From the IMG/VR virus record IMGVR_UViG_2579778784_000007, positions 1-43,367 of that record: a DNA stretch of 43,367 nucleotides, one strand, 5' to 3'. The position numbers and the translations under genes were made by a program. Positions 6,479 through 37,072 of the stretch are shown in pieces. The stretch is from a virus. Its lineage: Duplodnaviria > Heunggongvirae > Uroviricota > Caudoviricetes. Within the stretch, counting starts at the first letter, position 1, and each line of letters opens with the position of its first letter. Under the pieces are notes generated by a model, which saw nothing but the letters and a program-made list of their open reading frames with translations, did no database searches and was not told the origin of the DNA.

Positions 6479-7373
6479 TGGCAACCTCCAGTTTCGCTTT
6501 GCATTCTATGTAAATGGCTTGTACGTTCTGCTGCAATTTCATTCCAGATGTCAGGCGATATGCTTCTGCAAAATATCGCTTCAAATCATCCATGTTTTCT
6601 GCCTGAGCCATTTCATCACAAAGAAGTTGTGCTTTATCCATTATTTCCTGCTGGCGTTTCCGTTCATCTTCGCGGATATCTTCCTCTGATTTGTGCGGCA
6701 TAACTGGTTCAGTCCACACACCTTCTTCTTCGTTTAGTACGTGAATAGCACTATCAAGACGTGATGCCTTAGGCCAATACTTGCTTGCACGCTTTACGAC
6801 CGTCTTTCGCGCCATCTCATTCCAGTGATTTACCCATGGTCCTTTATCGCTGAATGCTGCCTTGCTTGTTTTCCTTACAGCCTCAATTTCAGCCAGACTC
6901 ATCTCTTCCGTTAGATAATCACCTGCTGGCGTCTTAACTGTGCAGTAAACGCCAACAATATCACCACGATCACCGAAGGCGTTGTATTTATGGGTTGGTG
7001 CTTTATCAAGCCCGTTTGACTCATAGGTATCGTTAGCATGAACAAGTTTTGCCTGACCCCATGAGATAACACCAGACTCCATTGCAATATGGAGCAATCC
7101 CATATAACTGATATCAAGGCAAACCATGCCGTCGCGCGGAACCAGATAAGCCAGTTTGCTGGCCGGGTTTAAGGTGATGCCGATCGCCGCAACATTGATG
7201 ATGGCGTTCTGTGCACTGGTTGGATTTGCCAGTGCTGTTTTAGCCAGGTAATCATTTTTCTGGAAATACTGAATTGCAAACTGGCTTTCCTTAGCCCATG
7301 TCACCGTCTGTTCAGTCAATGCTCCGCAGAATAACTGCTCCTGCTGTTTAACGAATTCAACGATATTGCTCAT
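6462..7373 (-). CDS. recT: RecT-family single-strand annealing recombinase
   Basis: 303 aa; segment GPWVNHWNEMARKTVVKRASKYWP parallels the conserved RecT motif (GPWVTHWEEMAKKTAIRRLFKYLP in E. coli RecT); occupies the position of lambda bet. Confidence 0.8.
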   Translation of the reverse strand: MSNIVEFVKQQEQLFCGALTEQTVTWAKESQFAIQYFQKNDYLAKTALANPTSAQNAIINVAAIGITLNPASKLAYLVPRDGMVCLDISYMGLLHIAMESGVISWGQAKLVHANDTYESNGLDKAPTHKYNAFGDRGDIVGVYCTVKTPAGDYLTEEMSLAEIEAVRKTSKAAFSDKGPWVNHWNEMARKTVVKRASKYWPKASRLDSAIHVLNEEEGVWTEPVMPHKSEEDIREDERKRQQEIMDKAQLLCDEMAQAENMDDLKRYFAEAYRLTSGMKLQQNVQAIYIECKAKLEVASEQTV

Positions 7374-7681
7374 GCTGCTTCTCCATAAATGTGTCTGCGT
7401 TTGAATATTGCGAAGGCATATTCAGCCTTAACTCTTTCGGTTATTGCATCCCAGAACCATTCAGCGGCTTTTTCCTGATAGTTACAGTCATCATCTTCCA
7501 GCCAGTCGATAGCGTCCTTAGTGTGTTCATCTGGTTTATATGAGCGAAGCATTTCGCTTATTGGGTCGCAACGTTTGCAGAGGCGATCAACTTCACTGTT
7601 AATTCGTTCGTAATCTTCATCAGTAAAACTTGCGATTATTTGCGATATTTCACGCTTATCATTCAGAGTCAGAATCATCAT
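7370..7681 (-). CDS. Hypothetical early-left protein
   Basis: 103-aa ORF, AGGAG SD, ATGA coupling to recT. Confidence 0.5.
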   Translation of the reverse strand: MMILTLNDKREISQIIASFTDEDYERINSEVDRLCKRCDPISEMLRSYKPDEHTKDAIDWLEDDDCNYQEKAAEWFWDAITERVKAEYAFAIFKRRHIYGEAA

Positions 7682-7763
7682 CTTTCTCCTGTTCTTTGTG
7701 CTGATTGAGCATTTTGTTCATCTGACGAATGAATTCTTCGTCTGACCAGTTATCTGTAAAACT

Positions 7764-7916
7764 CATTTCCTGCGATACAACGGAAGGTTGATAGCTGATT
7801 TCATCGCTTTATTTGCTTCAAGCCACATTTTTGAATCACCAATAAATCTGGCTATTACTGCTTTGTTTTGTGCAGCACGAAGCATCTGGTGATTAATGGC
7901 TATTTCATTGCGCATA
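7764..7916 (-). CDS. Small protein in the kil position (Kil-like candidate, 50 aa)
   Basis: Not in ORF track. GGAGG SD then ATG at 7916; MRNEIAINHQMLRAAQNKAVIARFIGDSKMWLEANKAMKSAINLPLYRRK; overlaps the 3' end of the cIII-like ORF as kil overlaps cIII in lambda. Sequence assignment tentative. Confidence 0.3.
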
Positions 7917-8034
7917 ACGCCTCCAGTTGTTTCTTTGCTGCTCTGATTAATTGTTTAACTCGGCGTGATAATTCAGATTCGTGCGGGTAGAAAGCGGACA
8001 TGACGCCGCTACCCGCGAACTGAAAGTGCATCAT
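7900..8034 (-). CDS. cIII: cIII-like protein (FtsH inhibitor candidate, 44 aa)
   Basis: AAGGAG SD 5 nt before ATG at 8034; MMHFQFAGSGVMSAFYPHESELSRRVKQLIRAAKKQLEALCAMK contains an amphipathic-helix motif resembling lambda CIII (ESLLERITRKLRDGWKRLIDIL); position downstream of N matches. Confidence 0.45.
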   Translation of the reverse strand: MMHFQFAGSGVMSAFYPHESELSRRVKQLIRAAKKQLEALCAMK

Positions 8035-8100
8035 GGGTAACTCCTTCTGTTTGATTGCATAACGAAAATGCCTCGAGTGAAGCGTTATTGGTATGCATAT

Positions 8101-8124
8101 AAAAAGGCCCTCACACTGGAGGGC
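8101..8124 (-). terminator. Intrinsic terminator in the pL operon (tL1-like, N-suppressible by analogy)
   Basis: Minus strand GCCCTC-cagtgt-GAGGGC followed by CTTTTTAT; lies between the 156-aa gene and cIII-like ORF. A second 9-bp inverted repeat (GTGTATTCA...TGAATACAC) is at ~8190..8220. Confidence 0.45.
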
Positions 8125-8228
8125 AAAGAAGACTTCCAATAATCAGAACAAGTCGGCTCCTGTTTAGTTACGAGCGACATTGCTCCGTGTATTCACTCGT
8201 TGGAATGAATACACAGTGCTTACTCGTA

Positions 8229-8699
8229 CTAATAAAATACCCAATTTTCTGTTTCTTGGTTGTGCCCAAAGTTATATTCAATATCTGGTGTTGATGTATC
8301 AATATTCTTCATCCCATCAACAAGAGTTGATACAACAGCCAAATCTTGTTTGATTCTCATTAAATGGTATTTCTTCCGGCGCAATAAACTTTCAATGGCA
8401 AGTTTCTTCGTTGGGAATGCAAAAGATCTTTCTGCATTTTTTGCCACTTTCTTAATTGCATATCTATTTCTCTTTTGTTTCCATTCCTGTAACCACTGAT
8501 TTGGTGCTGGTTTAAAATTAACAATCCAATGCGCAGGAACCAACCATGCATAATGCTCTGTCTGATGAAAAGCTATATATTGAAGTGCGAATATTTTGAT
8601 CCCATCTTCTTCAACTGTCGCCTGGAATCTCCAGAAAACAGGCATTCCATCATGTTCAGTTTCTGATTCAGGAAAAGGTACGCTCCATGATTTTGTCAT
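8229..8699 (-). CDS. Hypothetical protein (156 aa), AT-rich accessory gene coupled to N
   Basis: ORF starts 8 nt after the N stop with GAGGTG SD; visibly AT-rich compared with neighbours; no recognisable domain; occupies the ral/sieB region of the lambda map. Confidence 0.6.
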   Translation of the reverse strand: MTKSWSVPFPESETEHDGMPVFWRFQATVEEDGIKIFALQYIAFHQTEHYAWLVPAHWIVNFKPAPNQWLQEWKQKRNRYAIKKVAKNAERSFAFPTKKLAIESLLRRKKYHLMRIKQDLAVVSTLVDGMKNIDTSTPDIEYNFGHNQETENWVFY

Positions 8700-8707
8700 A
8701 TCTCACC

Positions 8708-9034
8708 TCAAATAAGTGGTTTGCTGCCTAATTTCATTTTCTGGCGACCAACACAAGTCACACCCATTTCACTGCGTGGCTTGCTGTACCATGTGCGCTG
8801 ATTCTTGCGCTCAATACGTTGCAGGTTGCTTTCAATCTGTTCGTGGTATTCAGCCAGCACCGTGAGGTCTATCGGATTCAGTGCGCTTTCTACTCGTGAT
8901 TTCGGTTTGCGATTCAGCGAGAGAATAGGGCGGTTAACTGGTTTTGCGCTTACCCCAACCAACAGGGGATTTGCTGCTTTCCATTGAGCCTGTTTCTCTG
9001 CGCGACGTTCGCGGCGGCGTGTTTGTGCATCCAT
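8708..9034 (-). CDS. N: Antitermination protein N
   Basis: MDAQTRRRERRAEKQAQWKAANPLLVGVSAKPVNRPILSLNRKPKSRVESALNPIDLTVLAEYH... matches lambda N including the arginine-rich boxB-binding motif; AGGAG SD. Confidence 0.93.
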   Translation of the reverse strand: MDAQTRRRERRAEKQAQWKAANPLLVGVSAKPVNRPILSLNRKPKSRVESALNPIDLTVLAEYHEQIESNLQRIERKNQRTWYSKPRSEMGVTCVGRQKMKLGSKPLI

Positions 9035-9232
9035 CTGGATTCTCCTGTCAGTTAGCTTTGGTGATTGGATGGCCGGCGCTGAACCCCGGCTTACTGGTTA
9101 GAGCGCCCGCACTACCAGTGACGCTGTCTTGAGGCGCAGATTGGTTACTGCTTGCCATGAGCGCTGTTTATACATTGGTCGAGCATCAGCCTGCTCATTC
9201 ATCCAATCCCAAAGCCTTCTGCTTTGAATGCT

Positions 9233-9263
9233 GCCCTTCTTCAGGGCTAAATTTTTAAGAGCC
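9233..9263 (-). promoter_or_regulatory. nutL: nutL (boxA + boxB) N-utilisation site
   Basis: On minus strand: boxA GCTCTTAAAAA and boxB hairpin AGCCCTGAAGAAGGGCA, as in lambda nutL, between pL and N. Confidence 0.8.
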
Positions 9264-9303
9264 TCACCTTCAATGGTGGTCAGTGCGTCCTGCTGATGGC
9301 TAA

Positions 9304-9332
9304 ATAGTACGATTTGTACTTTATCGAGTCAA
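9304..9332 (-). promoter_or_regulatory. pL promoter with overlapping operator (oL)
   Basis: On minus strand: -35 TTGACT, 17-nt spacer, -10 TACTAT; palindrome AGTAC-N5-GTACT (plus 9306..9320) overlaps spacer and -10; the downstream leader resembles the lambda pL leader (ATCAGCAGGACGCACTGACCACC). Confidence 0.6.
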
Positions 9333-9396
9333 TACAAAATGTTCTAAATATAATTAGTTTTTTATAACGCTTTGTATTTAATGGGTTTATATTTTG

Positions 9397-9425
9397 GAAA
9401 AAGAAAACCCGGCGCTGAGGCCGGG
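9397..9425 (-). terminator. Intrinsic terminator after the cI-operon accessory gene (tIMM-like)
   Basis: Minus strand CCCGGC-ctcagc-GCCGGG perfect 6-bp stem followed by TTTTCTTTTT, 12 nt after the stop of the 348-aa gene. Confidence 0.65.
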
Positions 9426-9436
9426 TTTGGAGTGCA

Positions 9437-10483
9437 TCACTCTGGTTCGCTGGGGAATATATTTATCAATTGCCCTGTTGAAATGTGCCCATTTTCTACA
9501 ACCTCTAGATATGAAATTTCAACAGTTGATTCTTTGGCTACAGCATTCAAAAACTCAAGAAGCTCATCAGTAGATGTTATGTCGGCTGAGGTTTTTATGG
9601 TGAAAGATTCACCATTTGAAACCCTTATGACGTCAATATTTATGTCCTGATTTGTTTCTCCCGAGCGACGAACGCCCGTGACATAAAAGTTATCTCTTCT
9701 AGTTTCCTTTTTTCGATCAATTGATTGTCTTTGGTTTAAGGTATTCAACTGTTCTCTATTTACCACTCTCTGACCAATTGTTACCCTCTCAACTGACGAG
9801 TCTTGAGCAAGCTTTTTAAGCAACTTGCTTTTACCATCCTCGCCGTGAGCCAGAACCTCTCTGCTAATGTTTGTTTGACCGCTAATCAACAACTTGAGCA
9901 CATTGTCTTGTGCTTCGTTTACCGCTTTGGTGCTTTTTTCCACCAATTGCACCTGAGAATCTTGGTCATGTCGCTGTGTTTCGTAGTACTCATTGATCCA
10001 CTTATAGCCTACCGTGCTGGCAGCTAAGACGATAGCGGCGACGGCGCATAGTGCTTGCCTTCCTGTCATTTTGCCTATCGCTTGAGTAAACACTGTCACC
10101 ACTCCGTTTACAATCGGATCTGAGTCACCATCCGCTTGGCTTGAGCCTTCGCTTATTCGGTAGACAATATCCAGCAAACCTTTCTCTGCATCTTTTAGCT
10201 TCTGCCGATTATGAGTGCTGTGACTGACTACCGTAAATGCTTTTTGTATTTCATGCGTAAGCTCTGCCATACCAAAAAGCATTGACGCAGTCAATGAAGA
10301 ATTATATCTATTTGGATCGCCTTTTACATTAATATTGATCTTTGGCCATCCACTGAAAACTACGTTAGGGAATGTGAAGTCGCTTGAGTCGATGTCCTTC
10401 CTTCCGAGCATTTCTGTTACAAAAGATACAAAGTCGTCTTCTGACTTGATAACATATTGCGCAGGTTGATCAATCGCTGACAT
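9437..10483 (-). CDS. Unknown 348-aa protein in the rexA/rexB position downstream of cI (candidate prophage defence/exclusion gene)
   Basis: Starts 25 nt after the cI stop with AAGGA SD, same strand, followed by a strong terminator; central hydrophobic stretch ALCAVAAIVLAASTVGYKWI (about residues 143..162); appears AT-rich; no recognisable motif. Confidence 0.75.
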   Translation of the reverse strand: MSAIDQPAQYVIKSEDDFVSFVTEMLGRKDIDSSDFTFPNVVFSGWPKININVKGDPNRYNSSLTASMLFGMAELTHEIQKAFTVVSHSTHNRQKLKDAEKGLLDIVYRISEGSSQADGDSDPIVNGVVTVFTQAIGKMTGRQALCAVAAIVLAASTVGYKWINEYYETQRHDQDSQVQLVEKSTKAVNEAQDNVLKLLISGQTNISREVLAHGEDGKSKLLKKLAQDSSVERVTIGQRVVNREQLNTLNQRQSIDRKKETRRDNFYVTGVRRSGETNQDINIDVIRVSNGESFTIKTSADITSTDELLEFLNAVAKESTVEISYLEVVENGHISTGQLINIFPSEPE

Positions 10484-11535: not shown

Positions 11536-11614
11536 ATCAAATTAAACCACACCTATGGTGTATGCATTTATTTGCATACATTCAATCAATTGTTATCTAA
11601 GGAAATACTTACAT

Positions 11615-11893
11615 ATGCAACTTACAAGTACTCGCAAGAAAGCGAATGCAATTACAAGCAACATCCTGAATCGAATTGCTGTACGTGGTCAGCGAAAGGT
11701 TGCTGACGCGTTAGGAATTAATGAATCGCAAATTTCGCGATGGAAAGACAGCTTCATCCCAAAAATGGGAATGCTTCTGGCTGTTCTTGAATGGGGTGTT
11801 GAAGACGAGGAGTTGGCGGAACTGGCTAAGAAAGTAGCCAGAATGCTGACAAAAGAAAAAGCCCCGAAGAACGGCGAATTCTTCGAGGCCTGA
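11615..11893 (+). CDS. cII: cII transcriptional activator
   Basis: 92 aa from ATG at 11615; SQISRWK...MLLAVLEWGV motif matches lambda CII; the leader resembles the lambda cII leader. Confidence 0.85.
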   Translation: MQLTSTRKKANAITSNILNRIAVRGQRKVADALGINESQISRWKDSFIPKMGMLLAVLEWGVEDEELAELAKKVARMLTKEKAPKNGEFFEA

Positions 11894-11927: not shown

Positions 11928-12089
11928 ATGACAAAACGTCGTAAGAAATACCAGGAAAAAGAAGAGATTCGACACCCTGATTCACCTGAGGGATTAGTGG
12001 TAGCCGCAGCAAATAACAGGGCGTTCGCAGAGCGCCTTGTTGGTGTTTACAGACTAGCCAAAGCAGGAGTGAAACATGGGCGTCGTTAA
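11928..12089 (+). CDS. Small hypothetical protein (53 aa)
   Basis: Not in ORF track; ATG at 11928 with GGAG SD; basic N-terminus MTKRRKKYQEKEE.... Confidence 0.35.
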   Translation: MTKRRKKYQEKEEIRHPDSPEGLVVAAANNRAFAERLVGVYRLAKAGVKHGRR

Positions 12090-12138
12090 GTTAGCTGATT
12101 ACAGGCATAACCCTGTACAACATCAGGAGGCATCCAGT

Positions 12139-13032
12139 ATGGGGTATGTCTCTATACACCGCCAGTTTATGGACAGCAGGCTCTATAAGGACTCTCAGGC
12201 AGTACATCTTTGGCTTCACTTAATCCTCAAGGCTAATCACGAATCTACTGTCGTCAATACGGATATCGGTCCGATAACTGTTGATCGCGGTCAGATGATA
12301 ACTGGACGCCCGTCGCTGGTCAGAGAAACATTCATCCCCGACAACAAAGTTAGGAGCTTATTACGGACTTTTGAGTCGAAAGGGATGCTTAATATTTGCT
12401 CGATTGGGAAGAAATTTAGCCTGTTTACAATCGTTAAATATGACGATTTTCAGGCAAAAAATTGTCCAACGGTTGTCCAACGGTTGTCCAACGCAAACAC
12501 CAGTAATGGCGCGGCTCTCAGCGGAGATTGTCCAACGGTTGTCCAACGGTTGTCCAACGCAAACACCAGTAATGGCGCGGCTCTCAGCGGAGATTGTCCA
12601 ACGGTTGTCCAACGGTTGTCCATAAACAATAATATAAATAATATCTCTAATACTGACGTATTAGAGAGTGCCACAGCAGACAAAAAGTCTGACAAGAAAA
12701 AACCTTCCGTCAGCTGTCAGGATGTTGTCGATGCTTACCACGAAATCCTTCCTGAAGCGCCAAGAATCCGCGCACTGAATGACAAGCGTAAAAACCAGAT
12801 CCGAACGTTCTGGCGCAAAGCCGGAGTGATAACCCGCCAGCTTGACGGGCATGGGTTCACGATGCAGGACTGGAGAAATTATTTGAGCTACGTTGGCGAA
12901 AATTGCCGATGGATGTTCGAAGAGCGCCCAAACCATCAACGCGGAACCGTCTGGCACAAAAAGGGATTTGATTTCCTGCTTAACGACAATACCTACCTGA
13001 AAGTTCGTGAGGGTGAACACGATGACCGATAA
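12139..13032 (+). CDS. Replication initiator / replisome organiser (O-like, P22 gene 18 type) containing origin iterons
   Basis: Start chosen at ATG 12139 (AGGAGG SD, 8-nt spacing); N-terminal HTH-like domain, an iteron-encoded 22-aa tandem repeat, conserved C-terminal domain; immediately followed by a DnaB-like helicase. Confidence 0.72.
   Translation: MGYVSIHRQFMDSRLYKDSQAVHLWLHLILKANHESTVVNTDIGPITVDRGQMITGRPSLVRETFIPDNKVRSLLRTFESKGMLNICSIGKKFSLFTIVKYDDFQAKNCPTVVQRLSNANTSNGAALSGDCPTVVQRLSNANTSNGAALSGDCPTVVQRLSINNNINNISNTDVLESATADKKSDKKKPSVSCQDVVDAYHEILPEAPRIRALNDKRKNQIRTFWRKAGVITRQLDGHGFTMQDWRNYLSYVGENCRWMFEERPNHQRGTVWHKKGFDFLLNDNTYLKVREGEHDDR
12472..12625 (+). repeat. ori: Origin-like iteron array: 11-bp unit TTGTCCAACGG in a 66-bp higher-order tandem repeat, followed by an AT-rich stretch
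   Basis: Read directly: three 11-bp units + 33-bp spacer, repeated twice and partially a third time; adjacent AT-rich segment 12622..12670; embedded within the initiator gene as in lambda ori. Confidence 0.7.
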
Positions 13033-31880: not shown

Positions 31881-33263
31881 TTGGCTACATGGCAACAGGC
31901 TGGTAATTCAGGCGCGCTTCTTGCCGGGTTAGGCGGCATGAACTCCAACGCTCCAAGAGCAAGTGATGCAGACGCCACGCTTGCATACATTCGCCAGAAC
32001 AACGAAATGGAGCGTTCAGGTCGCAATAACATCGGCCTTCAGGCGTTGCAGGGACTGGGTAGTGTCGCTCAAACATATCAAGCCGCAAAGCAACAGGAAG
32101 CGGATGCTGCATTCCAAAAAGAATATGCGGCAGCCATCCAGTCAGGTGATCGGCAGCAGGTTCGAGATCTGATGACCAAATATCCTGGTCAATTAGAGAA
32201 GATTCAGTCTGGTATGAAGTGGGCAGACGAAGACCAGCGCAATTCTATAGGCACCTTAGCGGCTGGCGCACGCCTTGCGGCCTCGTCTCCAGAAGCAATG
32301 CAATCATGGCTGCAAAACAACGCCAAGGAACTGACTCGCGTCGGTGTTGACCCTAATAACGTTGCTCAGATGTATCAGCAGAATCCTTCAGGATTTGGTG
32401 AGTTTGTTGATCACCTTGGAATGTCAGCGCTTGGTCCTAATGATTATTTCAATGTTCAGGACAAGATGGCTGGTCGTGAGATTGACCGAGGCAGGCTGGC
32501 AGAGACAATCCGCAGCAATCAGGCTGGCGAGGCACTTCAGGCGAGAGGGCAAAACCTTTCCTATCAGTCAGCAATGACTGGACACGGACTTGCAGCAGAA
32601 AGACTGGCACTTGATAAGCAGAAATTCGGTTTTGAAGTACAACAGGCACAAAAGAAGGCCGATGAACTTATTAATGCTGCGCCAAAACTATCCGTGAACA
32701 TGGAAAAGGCTATAGAAAAATCAGCAGGTGATGCGGCAGCTAGTCGTAATGCTGCCGATTCAATGACAACGCTTGCTGACACGCTTGAGAAGGAGAAGCC
32801 AACTCCTGGTTTGTTCGGTAACGCTGAAAATATGTTCACTAAGCTTACGGGGCAAGATAACTACCTCCGAGATATGCGGATTAGATTCAACCAACTAGCC
32901 AATGCGCAGGCAACAAAGCTTCTCCCTCCCGGCCCTGCATCAGATAAGGATATTGAGTTTGCAAGGAAAGGCATTCCAAGCGAAACGGATAATCCAATGG
33001 TCATGGCTCGATGGTTAAGGGGTATGGCAAAAATGGAAAGTAATAACGCGAAGTTCAACGAGTTTAGGTCAGAGTGGATGAGTGCAAATGGCAGCCCAGG
33101 ACAATCTGATCGCAACCGAAACATCATGGGGATGGATGTTAAGAAGGGTGAATCATTGAACTCTGCGGCAAAACGTTTTCTTTCCTCAAGTTATGGCGAT
33201 AGCCAACCTCAACAGCAATTGTCCGATGACGAATTAATTAGCAAATATCTCGGAGGGCAGTAA
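31881..33263 (+). CDS. Ejection protein, P22 gp20-like (TTG start)
   Basis: 460 aa; the frame opens after the gp7-like stop and the only start is TTG at 31881, 4 nt after GGAGGTG. Confidence 0.6.
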
Positions 33264-35386
33264 TGGCCTATAGTCGTGAACAGTTGATGACGGCGTTAAG
33301 GAATGCTGATGCTGCCGGCGATACTGAGGGAGCACGTCGCATTGCTCAGATGCTGTCTTCTGGTGATCAATCCACTCAAAACCAATCGCAGCCAGAAGAA
33401 CAATCTCTGGTGGGAAAAGCTACTGACTGGCTCACTGGTGGTCAAAGTGCAGGGCAAATTGCAGAACAGGCTGGTCGTGGTCTGGTAAACATACCATTTG
33501 ACGTATTGCAGGGTGGCGCAAGTCTGATTAATGCAATCAGTCAGGGGCTTGGTGGCCCCAAGGTTTTGGATGATGTTTATCGCCCTGTCGATCGACCGAC
33601 AGACCCTTACGCGCAAGCCGGTGAAACAATTGGTGGGTATCTCCTGCCAATTGGCACAGCGGCAAAAGCTGCTGGAGCGCCAGCAAAGCTCGCTGAAGAT
33701 ATCGGTTCCGCAGGAAACATGATTGCAGGTTCTCTTGCTGATGCTGCAAATCAGGAGGGCGACTTTGCACAAAATGCTGCCATTAACGGTGGTATCAATA
33801 TTGGTGCTCAGGGGATACTTTCTGGGGCTGGAAGGATCTTAACCTCTAAATCACCTCAAGCTCTTGGTGGCGGGGCAATAAATTCCGCTGCTGATGTTTC
33901 GAAAATGGCAAAGTCTGGTACAGGAAGAGAGATTATTGCCAGACAGTCAGCTAACGTGTCAGACGAAATAGCAAAAGCAGCAGATACTGCTGGAATAGAT
34001 ATCAACGCATTAACTCCTGGCATGAGATCAGGTAGTCGTGGTCTTGCTCAGGCGGAGGGGATTCTGGCGTCAAAGCCCGGAATTACACAGGATGCACATA
34101 CCAAAGCATTCAGTGAAATAGAGTCGAAATTTAACTCAGCATTGGATGAGTTTGGGGCTGAAGCAGGAACTGCATCAGAAAAAAGTGCAGCCATAAAACA
34201 AAGGGTTTTGGCAAGTATTGATAAAATGAAAAATTCAGAAAAGGCCGCATGGGATAGCGTCCGCTCCACGATGCCTGACGCAAAGGCCAGAATGTCAAAT
34301 CTGAACGCTACAATTCAGGGTGATATTTTGGCTGGCATGCCGCTAACTCCTGAGATGAAACAATTCGCATCTGCTTATGCTAAAACTGGTAAAAAAGGAA
34401 TCACGTTTGATGCCATGAAGGCATGGCGAAGTAAACTTGCTGACGCAGAGCAGAAGTATATAAGGTCTGGTGAGGCAAATACGGCAAGGCGCATGGCTGA
34501 GCTTCGTGATGCAGCAACGGAAGATATGCGCATAATGGCTCAAAATGGCGGTTTTCTTGATGACTGGCAAAAAGCTAATGATCTGTCAAAGGCAAGATTT
34601 ACAGCACAAGAACAGGCTGAAGCAGCGTTTGGTAGAGACCTTGCAACTGATCAGTTGGTAACTAATGGCTCTAAGGCGTTACAGGGTTCAGCAAAAAGTG
34701 GAACAGGTCAGTTCCATAAAATAATAAGCGCCCTACCTGAGTCGGAACGCGCGCCAGCAATTGCGTCAATATTACAAGATGCAATGTCGCAAGGGGTACG
34801 CGGAGGTAAGTCTGAAGAGGCTGGAATTAAGCATATCGCGACTATTCTTACCCCACAAAACGTGAAGGCAATTAGTCGATATTCTCCAGAACTTGGCAGG
34901 ATTACAAGTTCATACGGAGAACTTGCACGAGCAGCAACAAAGCCACTTCGATATGTTGAACAGACAGGGCGATCTATGCCAGCCATTAGCACTCTTGAGA
35001 ATGGCCTTCATCCAGTTTTAGAGAGCGTATTGTCTGGCGCTTTTCCAACCGCTGGCGCTATCGCAGGGTTCTCTGGAGGAGGTGTTATTGGAGCAATAGT
35101 GGGTGGCGCTGCAGGTGGAGCAATTGATGCAATAGCAAAAGGATCGATAGCGAAATTATCCGCAACCAGAAGCGGTCGTTACGCTATTGAAAAGGCTGTT
35201 CAAGAGGCAACAAAGGCCGTTAAGGTTGGGGCAAGTGATGGTGCATTAGCGGCGGCTGAACGCAGATTTATGGCAAATAAAGCCGCCGTAAAAGCAATAC
35301 GCGATGCTATTGGTAGCGATGAATTCAATCGCTTGTCGAGAGTTGGTATTGTCGCCTCGTTAAGCGGTATGAATGAATATGAATAG
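33263..35386 (+). CDS. Ejection protein, P22 gp16-like
   Basis: 707 aa, Ala/Gly-rich; TAATG overlap with preceding gene; last gene of the ejection-protein trio. Confidence 0.6.
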
Positions 35387-36836: not shown

Positions 36837-37010
36837 ATGATAGTCAAGTCAGACGCACCAAAGTACCCTTTGCGCATCCCATTAGAGGTTAAGTTAGCAA
36901 TCGAGAAGTCAGCGAAAGAAAATGGTCGCTCAATAAATACCGAGATGGTAATGCGGTTAGTGGATAGTTTAAGGCGGGATAGTTCTAAAGGTAATCTAGC
37001 AAAAAGTTGA
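36837..37010 (+). CDS. arc: Arc-like ribbon-helix-helix repressor
   Basis: 57 aa from ATG 36837 (GGAGG SD); PKYPLRIPLEVKLAIEKSAKENGRSINTEMVMRLV parallels P22 Arc PQFNLRWPREVLDLVRKVAEENGRSVNSEIYQRVM. Confidence 0.75.
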   Translation: MIVKSDAPKYPLRIPLEVKLAIEKSAKENGRSINTEMVMRLVDSLRRDSSKGNLAKS

Positions 37011-37072
37011 AGCCCCAACTGCGGTAACAGTCAGGGCTTCGTTATCAACAAATCGGCTTAGGAAATATTGAC

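Follow-up and report, generated by a model that had tools for sequence, protein, structure and literature searches.

Two short overlapping genes of a P22-like Escherichia coli prophage are probably cIII and kil of the HK022 allele class

The closest described counterparts of the genes considered here are cIII and kil of phages HK022 and lambda, and the CIII proteins of lambda, HK022 and P22 were reportedly compared by Kornitzer et al. in 1991. Lambda CIII is a competitive inhibitor of FtsH that stabilises CII and sigma32 (PMC1838920). According to the statement in PMC1838920 that cites Kornitzer 1991, the amphipathic helix formed by lambda CIII residues 14-37 is both essential and sufficient for activity. 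Among the known CIII proteins two classes, lambda and HK022, have been distinguished (Kobiler et al. 2007, PMC1838920), and the region matching lambda CIII 14-37 is the one most conserved among CIII proteins (PMC1838920). Lambda Kil acts via ZipA to block FtsZ assembly (PMC3961180); a ZipA-dependent block of the FtsZ ring with filamentation is established for the Kil proteins of lambda and HK629 (PMC3961180, PMC11762379). Lambda Kil has been modelled as a helix-turn-helix hairpin, with helices at residues 4-18 and 21-38 and a turn at G19-D20 (Naha et al. 2025, PMC11762379). A C-terminal RSK/RSSK motif is said to occur in nearly every homologue of lambda Kil, its functional meaning being put forward as a hypothesis (PMC11762379).

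The DNA analysed here, referred to as the window, is the whole 43,367-nt stretch of virus record IMGVR_UViG_2579778784_000007, and represents an E. coli prophage or phage mosaic of P22-like (Lederbergvirus) type whose early region is lambdoid. We listed the open reading frames of at least 20 aa on both strands over positions 7400-8400 and confirmed their geometry by script; feature coordinates are collected in Table 1. As the earlier note had claimed, and as both the sequence reading and the script confirm, two small minus-strand ORFs lie here in different frames, each with a Shine-Dalgarno site. The 44-aa product is MMHFQFAGSGVMSAFYPHESELSRRVKQLIRAAKKQLEALCAMK, which includes the motif ESELSRRVKQLIRAAKKQL quoted in that note, and the 50-aa product is MRNEIAINHQMLRAAQNKAVIARFIGDSKMWLEANKAMKSAINLPLYRRK. 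Two measurements in the earlier note need correction: the overlap, given as 17 bp, is 16 nt (7915..7900), and the boundary placed at 7764 is off by one, with the kil stop codon ending at 7763. The cIII and kil reading frames are offset by 2. Because the kil Shine-Dalgarno site falls inside the last cIII codons, translation of the two genes is likely to be linked. In the HK022 record X16093, putative ribosome-binding sites are annotated at the positions equivalent to both Shine-Dalgarno sites. Two plus-strand ORFs in the same region, 7788..7892 (34 aa) and 7868..7990 (40 aa), were treated as chance antisense frames.

Table 1. Positions in the window of cIII, kil and associated features
Feature	Positions	Strand	Basis and remarks
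Probable cIII, HK022 class	7900..8034	minus	44 aa + TAG stop; read from sequence, script-confirmed
Probable kil, HK022 class	7763..7915	minus	50 aa + TGA stop; read from sequence, script-confirmed
cIII/kil overlap	7900..7915	minus	16 nt, ATGCGCAATGAAATAG, counting the cIII stop codon; read from sequence
Shine-Dalgarno of cIII, AAGGAG	8041..8046	minus	6 nt 5' of the cIII ATG; direct reading
Shine-Dalgarno of kil, GGAGG	7920..7924	minus	4 nt 5' of the kil ATG, within the cIII coding sequence
35-aa ORF, MSFTDNWSDEEFIRQMNKMLNQHKEQEKDDDSDSE	7659..7766	minus	start codon overlaps the kil stop (ATGA); follows kil in the operon; phrog_17766, E=5e-16
Intrinsic terminator-like hairpin, GCCCTC-CAGTGT-GAGGGC then CTTTTTAT	8097..8124	minus	Just 5' of cIII, in the tL1 position; pattern scan
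N antiterminator gene, lambda type	8708..9034	minus	Pfam N36 PF11438, E=1.5e-26
nutL boxB hairpin, GCCCTGAAGAAGGGC	9233..9247	minus	Sequence reading; the pattern scan caught the hairpin on the opposite strand
pL-like promoter candidate, TTGACT-17-TACTAT	9304..9332	minus	Consensus scan only; position 5' of nutL and N fits pL
cII	11555..11893	plus	Pfam Phage_CII PF05269, E=3.6e-42, ORF residues 21-111

Profile searches assign both products to known families. In Pfam, where the curated cut-offs are 25 bits for cIII (PF08134) and 27.6 bits for Lambda_Kil (PF06301), the 44-aa product scored 101.9 bits against cIII (E=1.5e-29, profile positions 1-37 of 37) and the 50-aa product 72.6 bits against Lambda_Kil (E=1.7e-20, profile positions 1-31 of 31). 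In PHROGs, they matched phrog_550 "CIII" (E=6.6e-13) and phrog_2055 "Kil protein for bacterial septation inhibition" (E=2e-34; 2.2e-34), respectively. Protein alignments with HK022 left one difference in each case: L6F in CIII, where 43/44 residues are the same, and W46L in Kil, where 49/50 are the same. The suggestion that the first ORF encodes CIII and the second Kil is upheld by the Pfam matches and these alignments, and we put the probability that the two ORFs are cIII and kil of the HK022 allele class, carried by a P22-like/lambdoid E. coli prophage, at a little over nine in ten.

The segment is widely recorded. A megablast search with positions 7600-8250 against GenBank phages matched 329 records; relatives at 97-98% identity include HK97, H-19B, HK022, mEp235, HK106 and Kapi1, with "kil" and "cIII" annotated beneath the match. 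The segment was also found in 1262 of 5426 complete E. coli genomes. Stx2a phages LC645441 and LC645440 carry the F6 allele of CIII at 100% identity, and Stx2c phage LC645426 likewise carries the L46 allele of Kil. The 1989 HK022 record X16093.1 annotates a "cIII gene product (AA 1-44)" and a "kil gene product (AA 1-50)" with two putative ribosome-binding sites and the same geometry. Going by these entries, HK022-class cIII and kil are already known: sequences of this allele class entered GenBank in 1989, and both exact alleles are present in public phage records.

Products of only 44 and 50 aa invite the objection that their frames are open by chance, lie in non-coding or antisense DNA and yield no peptides, and numerous ORFs of 20-60 aa do arise by chance on both strands of this region. 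Diverged homologues bear on this point. The pair in Enterobacter phage vB_Ecl_MII_001 has 66% (cIII) and 65% (kil) amino acid identity to that of the window, and consists of a 44-aa cIII beginning MMH and a 48-aa kil, with a 16-nt overlap and GGAGG before kil; the 16-nt overlap and GGAGG are also kept in phage Dewey. Nei-Gojobori comparison of the window with vB_Ecl_MII_001 gave pN 0.29 and pS 0.63 for cIII (dN/dS ~0.26) and pN 0.28 and pS 0.79 for kil, and comparison with Dewey gave pN 0.15 and pS 0.42 for kil. Both alternative frames across the cIII stretch are interrupted by stops. These substitution patterns indicate purifying selection on both peptides. Retention of length, overlap and Shine-Dalgarno sites at 65% amino acid identity, a dN far lower than dS and the stops that interrupt the other frames all argue against chance; so do the Pfam E-values (~1e-29 and ~1e-20), the proper positioning of the Shine-Dalgarno sites and the genetically defined functions of the lambda homologues (PMC1838920, PMC3961180). 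On the strength of the profile scores, together with the pattern of selection, we exclude chance frames as an explanation, at a residual probability that is close to nil.

The start of cIII can also be questioned, since the maximal ORF spans 7900..8139 and Kapi1_016 is annotated at 61 aa: the true product could be N-terminally extended, either to 79 aa from a TTG at 8139 or to 61 aa in the Kapi1 style. Both forms were rejected because they span the terminator hairpin (8124..8107) and have no Shine-Dalgarno site, because the Kapi1 start is not conserved (its ATG is absent, the window reading ...TLHSRHF... where Kapi1 reads MLHERHF) and because the diverged homologues start MMH. In addition, AAGGAG sits 6 nt 5' of the ATG at 8034, the 44-aa form with an MMH start is favoured by HK022, Dewey and the Enterobacter phage alike, and the Pfam model starts at residue 2 of that form. 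An extended product is thus very improbable, and in what follows CIII means the 44-aa peptide.

Residues 17-40 of the window CIII align to lambda CIII 14-37, with P17, E19, S20, L22, R24, L29, K34 and L40 invariant, and the motif ESELSRRVKQLIRAAKKQL falls within this segment. The helical hydrophobic moment of the motif is 0.63 versus a shuffle mean of 0.27, with 1% of shuffles as high; across CIII, the moment peaks at 0.72 over residues 21-38, the value for lambda 14-37 being 0.67. A single-sequence AlphaFold2 model predicts a disordered N-terminus followed by a helix at residues 17-42, with pLDDT of 94-97 over residues 21-40. The CIII-like amphipathic helix that the earlier note proposed is borne out by the alignment to lambda 14-37 and by the hydrophobic moment.

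For Kil, the equivalent single-sequence AlphaFold2 model (mean pLDDT 85) has a helix at residues 2-25, a turn at G26-D27 and a second helix at residues 28-42, a predicted fold that matches the helix-turn-helix model of lambda Kil (PMC11762379). Alignment with lambda Kil shows F24, I25, G26, D27, K29 and M30 to be invariant. The C-terminus of the window Kil, YRRK, is basic, with R48 aligned to a lambda R, and has no serine. It could be that the two genes are true homologues but that HK022-class Kil acts differently, through another divisome target or independently of ZipA, or that L6F and W46L alter or abolish activity. The window protein is just 47% identical to lambda Kil, is extended by 7 residues at its N-terminus and ends in YRRK instead of RSSK (motif from PMC11762379), and the literature searched yielded no direct functional test of an HK022-class Kil. 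Nonetheless, the helix-turn-helix core is kept, as is the GD turn, the predicted fold is the same and the tail is still strongly basic; as for the substitutions, L6F and W46L lie outside the regions essential in lambda (CIII 14-37; Kil core ~6-36), and each exact allele recurs in phage records. We regard this explanation as decidedly improbable, and keep to CIII and Kil with presumably lambda-like activities. HK022-class Kil is a reasonable extra test case in work on Kil peptides as FtsZ inhibitors.

A comparison with phage vB_EcoP-683R2 (L007, ON470594.1, 785-1053) revealed a break in identity located exactly at the kil ATG. Leftward from the kil start (kil, orf35, orf103 and recT), 683R2 is ~100% identical to the window; immediately upstream the two are unrelated. 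The cIII of 683R2 is a lambda-like allele (…ESLLERITRKLRDGWKR…), yet it ends in LCAMK, an ending that it keeps because those codons overlap kil. Among phage records, HK022-class Kil is found in 65 versus only 26 for HK022-class CIII. As judged from these alignments, the 16-nt cIII/kil overlap is a mosaic recombination junction. Two separate proposals would go further: cIII alleles would swap exactly at the 16-nt overlap, which may be a conserved recombination linker, and HK022-class Kil could inhibit division via a partner or dependency other than the ZipA-dependent mechanism of lambda Kil. Taken together, these are unlikely. Were the overlap to act as a recombination linker, cIII alleles would reassort independently of kil.

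We also considered RNA structure around the cIII start. A search of positions 7500-9400 against Rfam at E<=1 returned nothing at cIII/kil, the matches to mir-15 and RSV_RNA at E ~1 being chance. The cIII initiation region (-36..+80) folds no better than shuffles (MFE z=-1.1), and the initiation folds of the window, the Enterobacter phage and lambda are not alike. Since there is no Rfam match, the z-score is of this size and the folds are unlike one another, RNA-structure control of cIII translation of the lambda type is not detectably conserved. A GC-rich hairpin (GCGGGUAG…CUACCCGC) occurs at 7975-8025 on the minus strand, within cIII codons 4-20, and a partly similar stem is present in the Enterobacter phage; given the z-score of the overall fold, it may reflect codon content only.

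The surroundings of the pair are those of a lambdoid early region. Read leftward along the minus strand, the region consists of a candidate pL-like promoter, boxB, N, a 156-aa ORF, the terminator-like hairpin, cIII, kil, the 35-aa ORF, a 103-aa ORF and recT, in that order; to the right there are genes for a LexA-like cI repressor, for Cro and for CII. The cIII locus is therefore placed in an N-type pL operon, directly 5' of and overlapping kil, with cII encoded in the window. We take the hairpin GCCCTGAAGAAGGGC at 9247..9233 to be the lambda nutL boxB sequence. The terminator-like hairpin (8124..8097), which is followed by a T-tract, has a predicted fold of -10.7 kcal/mol (z=-2.2), and the HK97 and HK106 records have a 'terminator' annotated beneath the match. 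The true start of cII is probably an internal ATG near 11615.

We infer transcription and antitermination of cIII and kil from homology and synteny. The two would be delayed-early genes of the leftward pL operon, in which transcription from pL would cross nutL and N; N-modified RNA polymerase would then pass the hairpin at ~8124..8097 and continue into cIII, kil, orf35, orf103 and recT. Each peptide would be translated from its own Shine-Dalgarno site. By homology to lambda, the amphipathic helix of CIII (~17-42) would competitively inhibit the membrane protease FtsH and would itself be one of its substrates, and FtsH inhibition would transiently stabilise the CII activator encoded in the window, favouring lysogeny. 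On the same grounds, the helix-turn-helix hairpin of Kil would impose a ZipA-dependent block on FtsZ-ring assembly, leading to filamentation during lytic growth or induction.

Several other features of the window were noted in passing. The 35-aa ORF (7659-7766) overlaps the 103-aa ORF (7370..7681), and its family, phrog_17766, is of unknown function; it is a CDS (hypothetical) in Kapi1 and 683R2 and was not called by PGAP in NZ_CP035498. The 156-aa ORF at 8229-8699 on the minus strand, between N and the tL1-like terminator, matches phrog_1636 (unknown function) over its full length (E=5e-112) and has no match in Pfam; its position is approximately that of lambda sieB, ral and ea10. A 348-aa ORF (9437-10483, minus) lies between the cI repressor and pL, i.e. 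in the position of lambda rexAB, and has its own strong terminator at 9405-9428 on the minus strand. It matches phrog_6191 (unknown function), had no Pfam or PADLOC match, and is a candidate for a moron or exclusion gene expressed in lysogens. When the whole window was searched against Rfam at the gathering threshold, the sole real match was sar RNA (RF00262) at 37005-37071 on the minus strand (70 bits, E=1e-12); sar, the antisense RNA that regulates ant in immI of P22, fits a P22-like late and immI region. Finally, the ORF of a 318-aa O-like replication protein (12076..13032, plus) contains a tandem peptide, (D/N)CPTVVQRLSNANTSNGAALSG, in ~2.5 copies at ~12400-12620; the DNA repeats that encode it probably represent iterons of the origin, lying within the replication gene.

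The expectation that automated annotation would miss these genes is half right: gene calling is usually fine, both in phage records and by PGAP, while naming is patchy and some pipelines fail. Both genes are annotated in HK022, HK97, H-19B, Kapi1 and RefSeq phage records. In the RefSeq genome that we inspected (NZ_CP035498.1), PGAP places both CDSs at the same coordinates, naming kil "host cell division inhibitory peptide Kil" and calling the 135-nt cIII CDS correctly (2701-2835) under the name "hypothetical protein"; these two product names recur in the top 30 E. coli genome matches. Neither CIII nor Kil is represented by an HMM in NCBIfam, and the PGAP name for kil must therefore come from another rule type. 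Elsewhere, RAST placed a wrong-frame ORF where cIII should be (PQ039552.1, 1140-1335), the extended 61-aa cIII is annotated in Kapi1 (MT813197.1, 2799-2984), and several Stx phage records carry no features at all. Beyond correct annotation, the importance of the pair is slight, these being textbook lambdoid early genes. Since HK022-class cIII goes under "hypothetical protein" in the PGAP annotation of about a thousand E. coli genomes, a fix to name propagation would be useful.

The locus can be set against three described systems. SpoVM of Bacillus is also a short amphipathic helical inhibitor of FtsH that is degraded by FtsH (PMC1838920); it belongs to a different organism and a different process, sporulation, and no sequence homology to CIII is claimed. 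HK022 (X16093.1, AF069308; Oberto, Weisberg & Gottesman 1989) likewise has products of 44 and 50 aa, a 16-nt overlap and the same Shine-Dalgarno positions, and its cIII/kil DNA is 97.5% identical to that of the window; HK97 and H-19B carry genes identical to HK022 cIII and kil. Apart from CIII L6F and Kil W46L, the window differs from HK022 by three synonymous changes in kil, and the phage around it is a P22-like Lederbergvirus mosaic with a lambda-type N, whereas HK022 has Nun.

Lambda is more distant. The formal alignment that had been proposed as a check found similarity to the lambda as well as the HK022 proteins: the window CIII is 32% identical to lambda CIII (54 aa) and the window Kil 47% identical to lambda Kil (47 aa). 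The likeness to the arrangement in lambda also holds, in that lambda cIII (33299..33463) and kil (33187..33330) overlap in different frames, although by 32 nt compared with 16 nt in the window. The window CIII is without the 13-residue C-terminal tail of lambda CIII, and the window Kil has 7 extra N-terminal residues and ends in YRRK, whereas the tail of lambda Kil is RSSKSIH. Downstream (3') of kil there are orf35, orf103 and recT in the window, in contrast to gam and bet in lambda. What the two phages have in common is the order of the operon (pL, N, terminator, cIII, kil), a central amphipathic helix in CIII in which P, ES, L, R, L, K and L are kept, and a helix-turn-helix core in Kil with the motif FIGD.KM.
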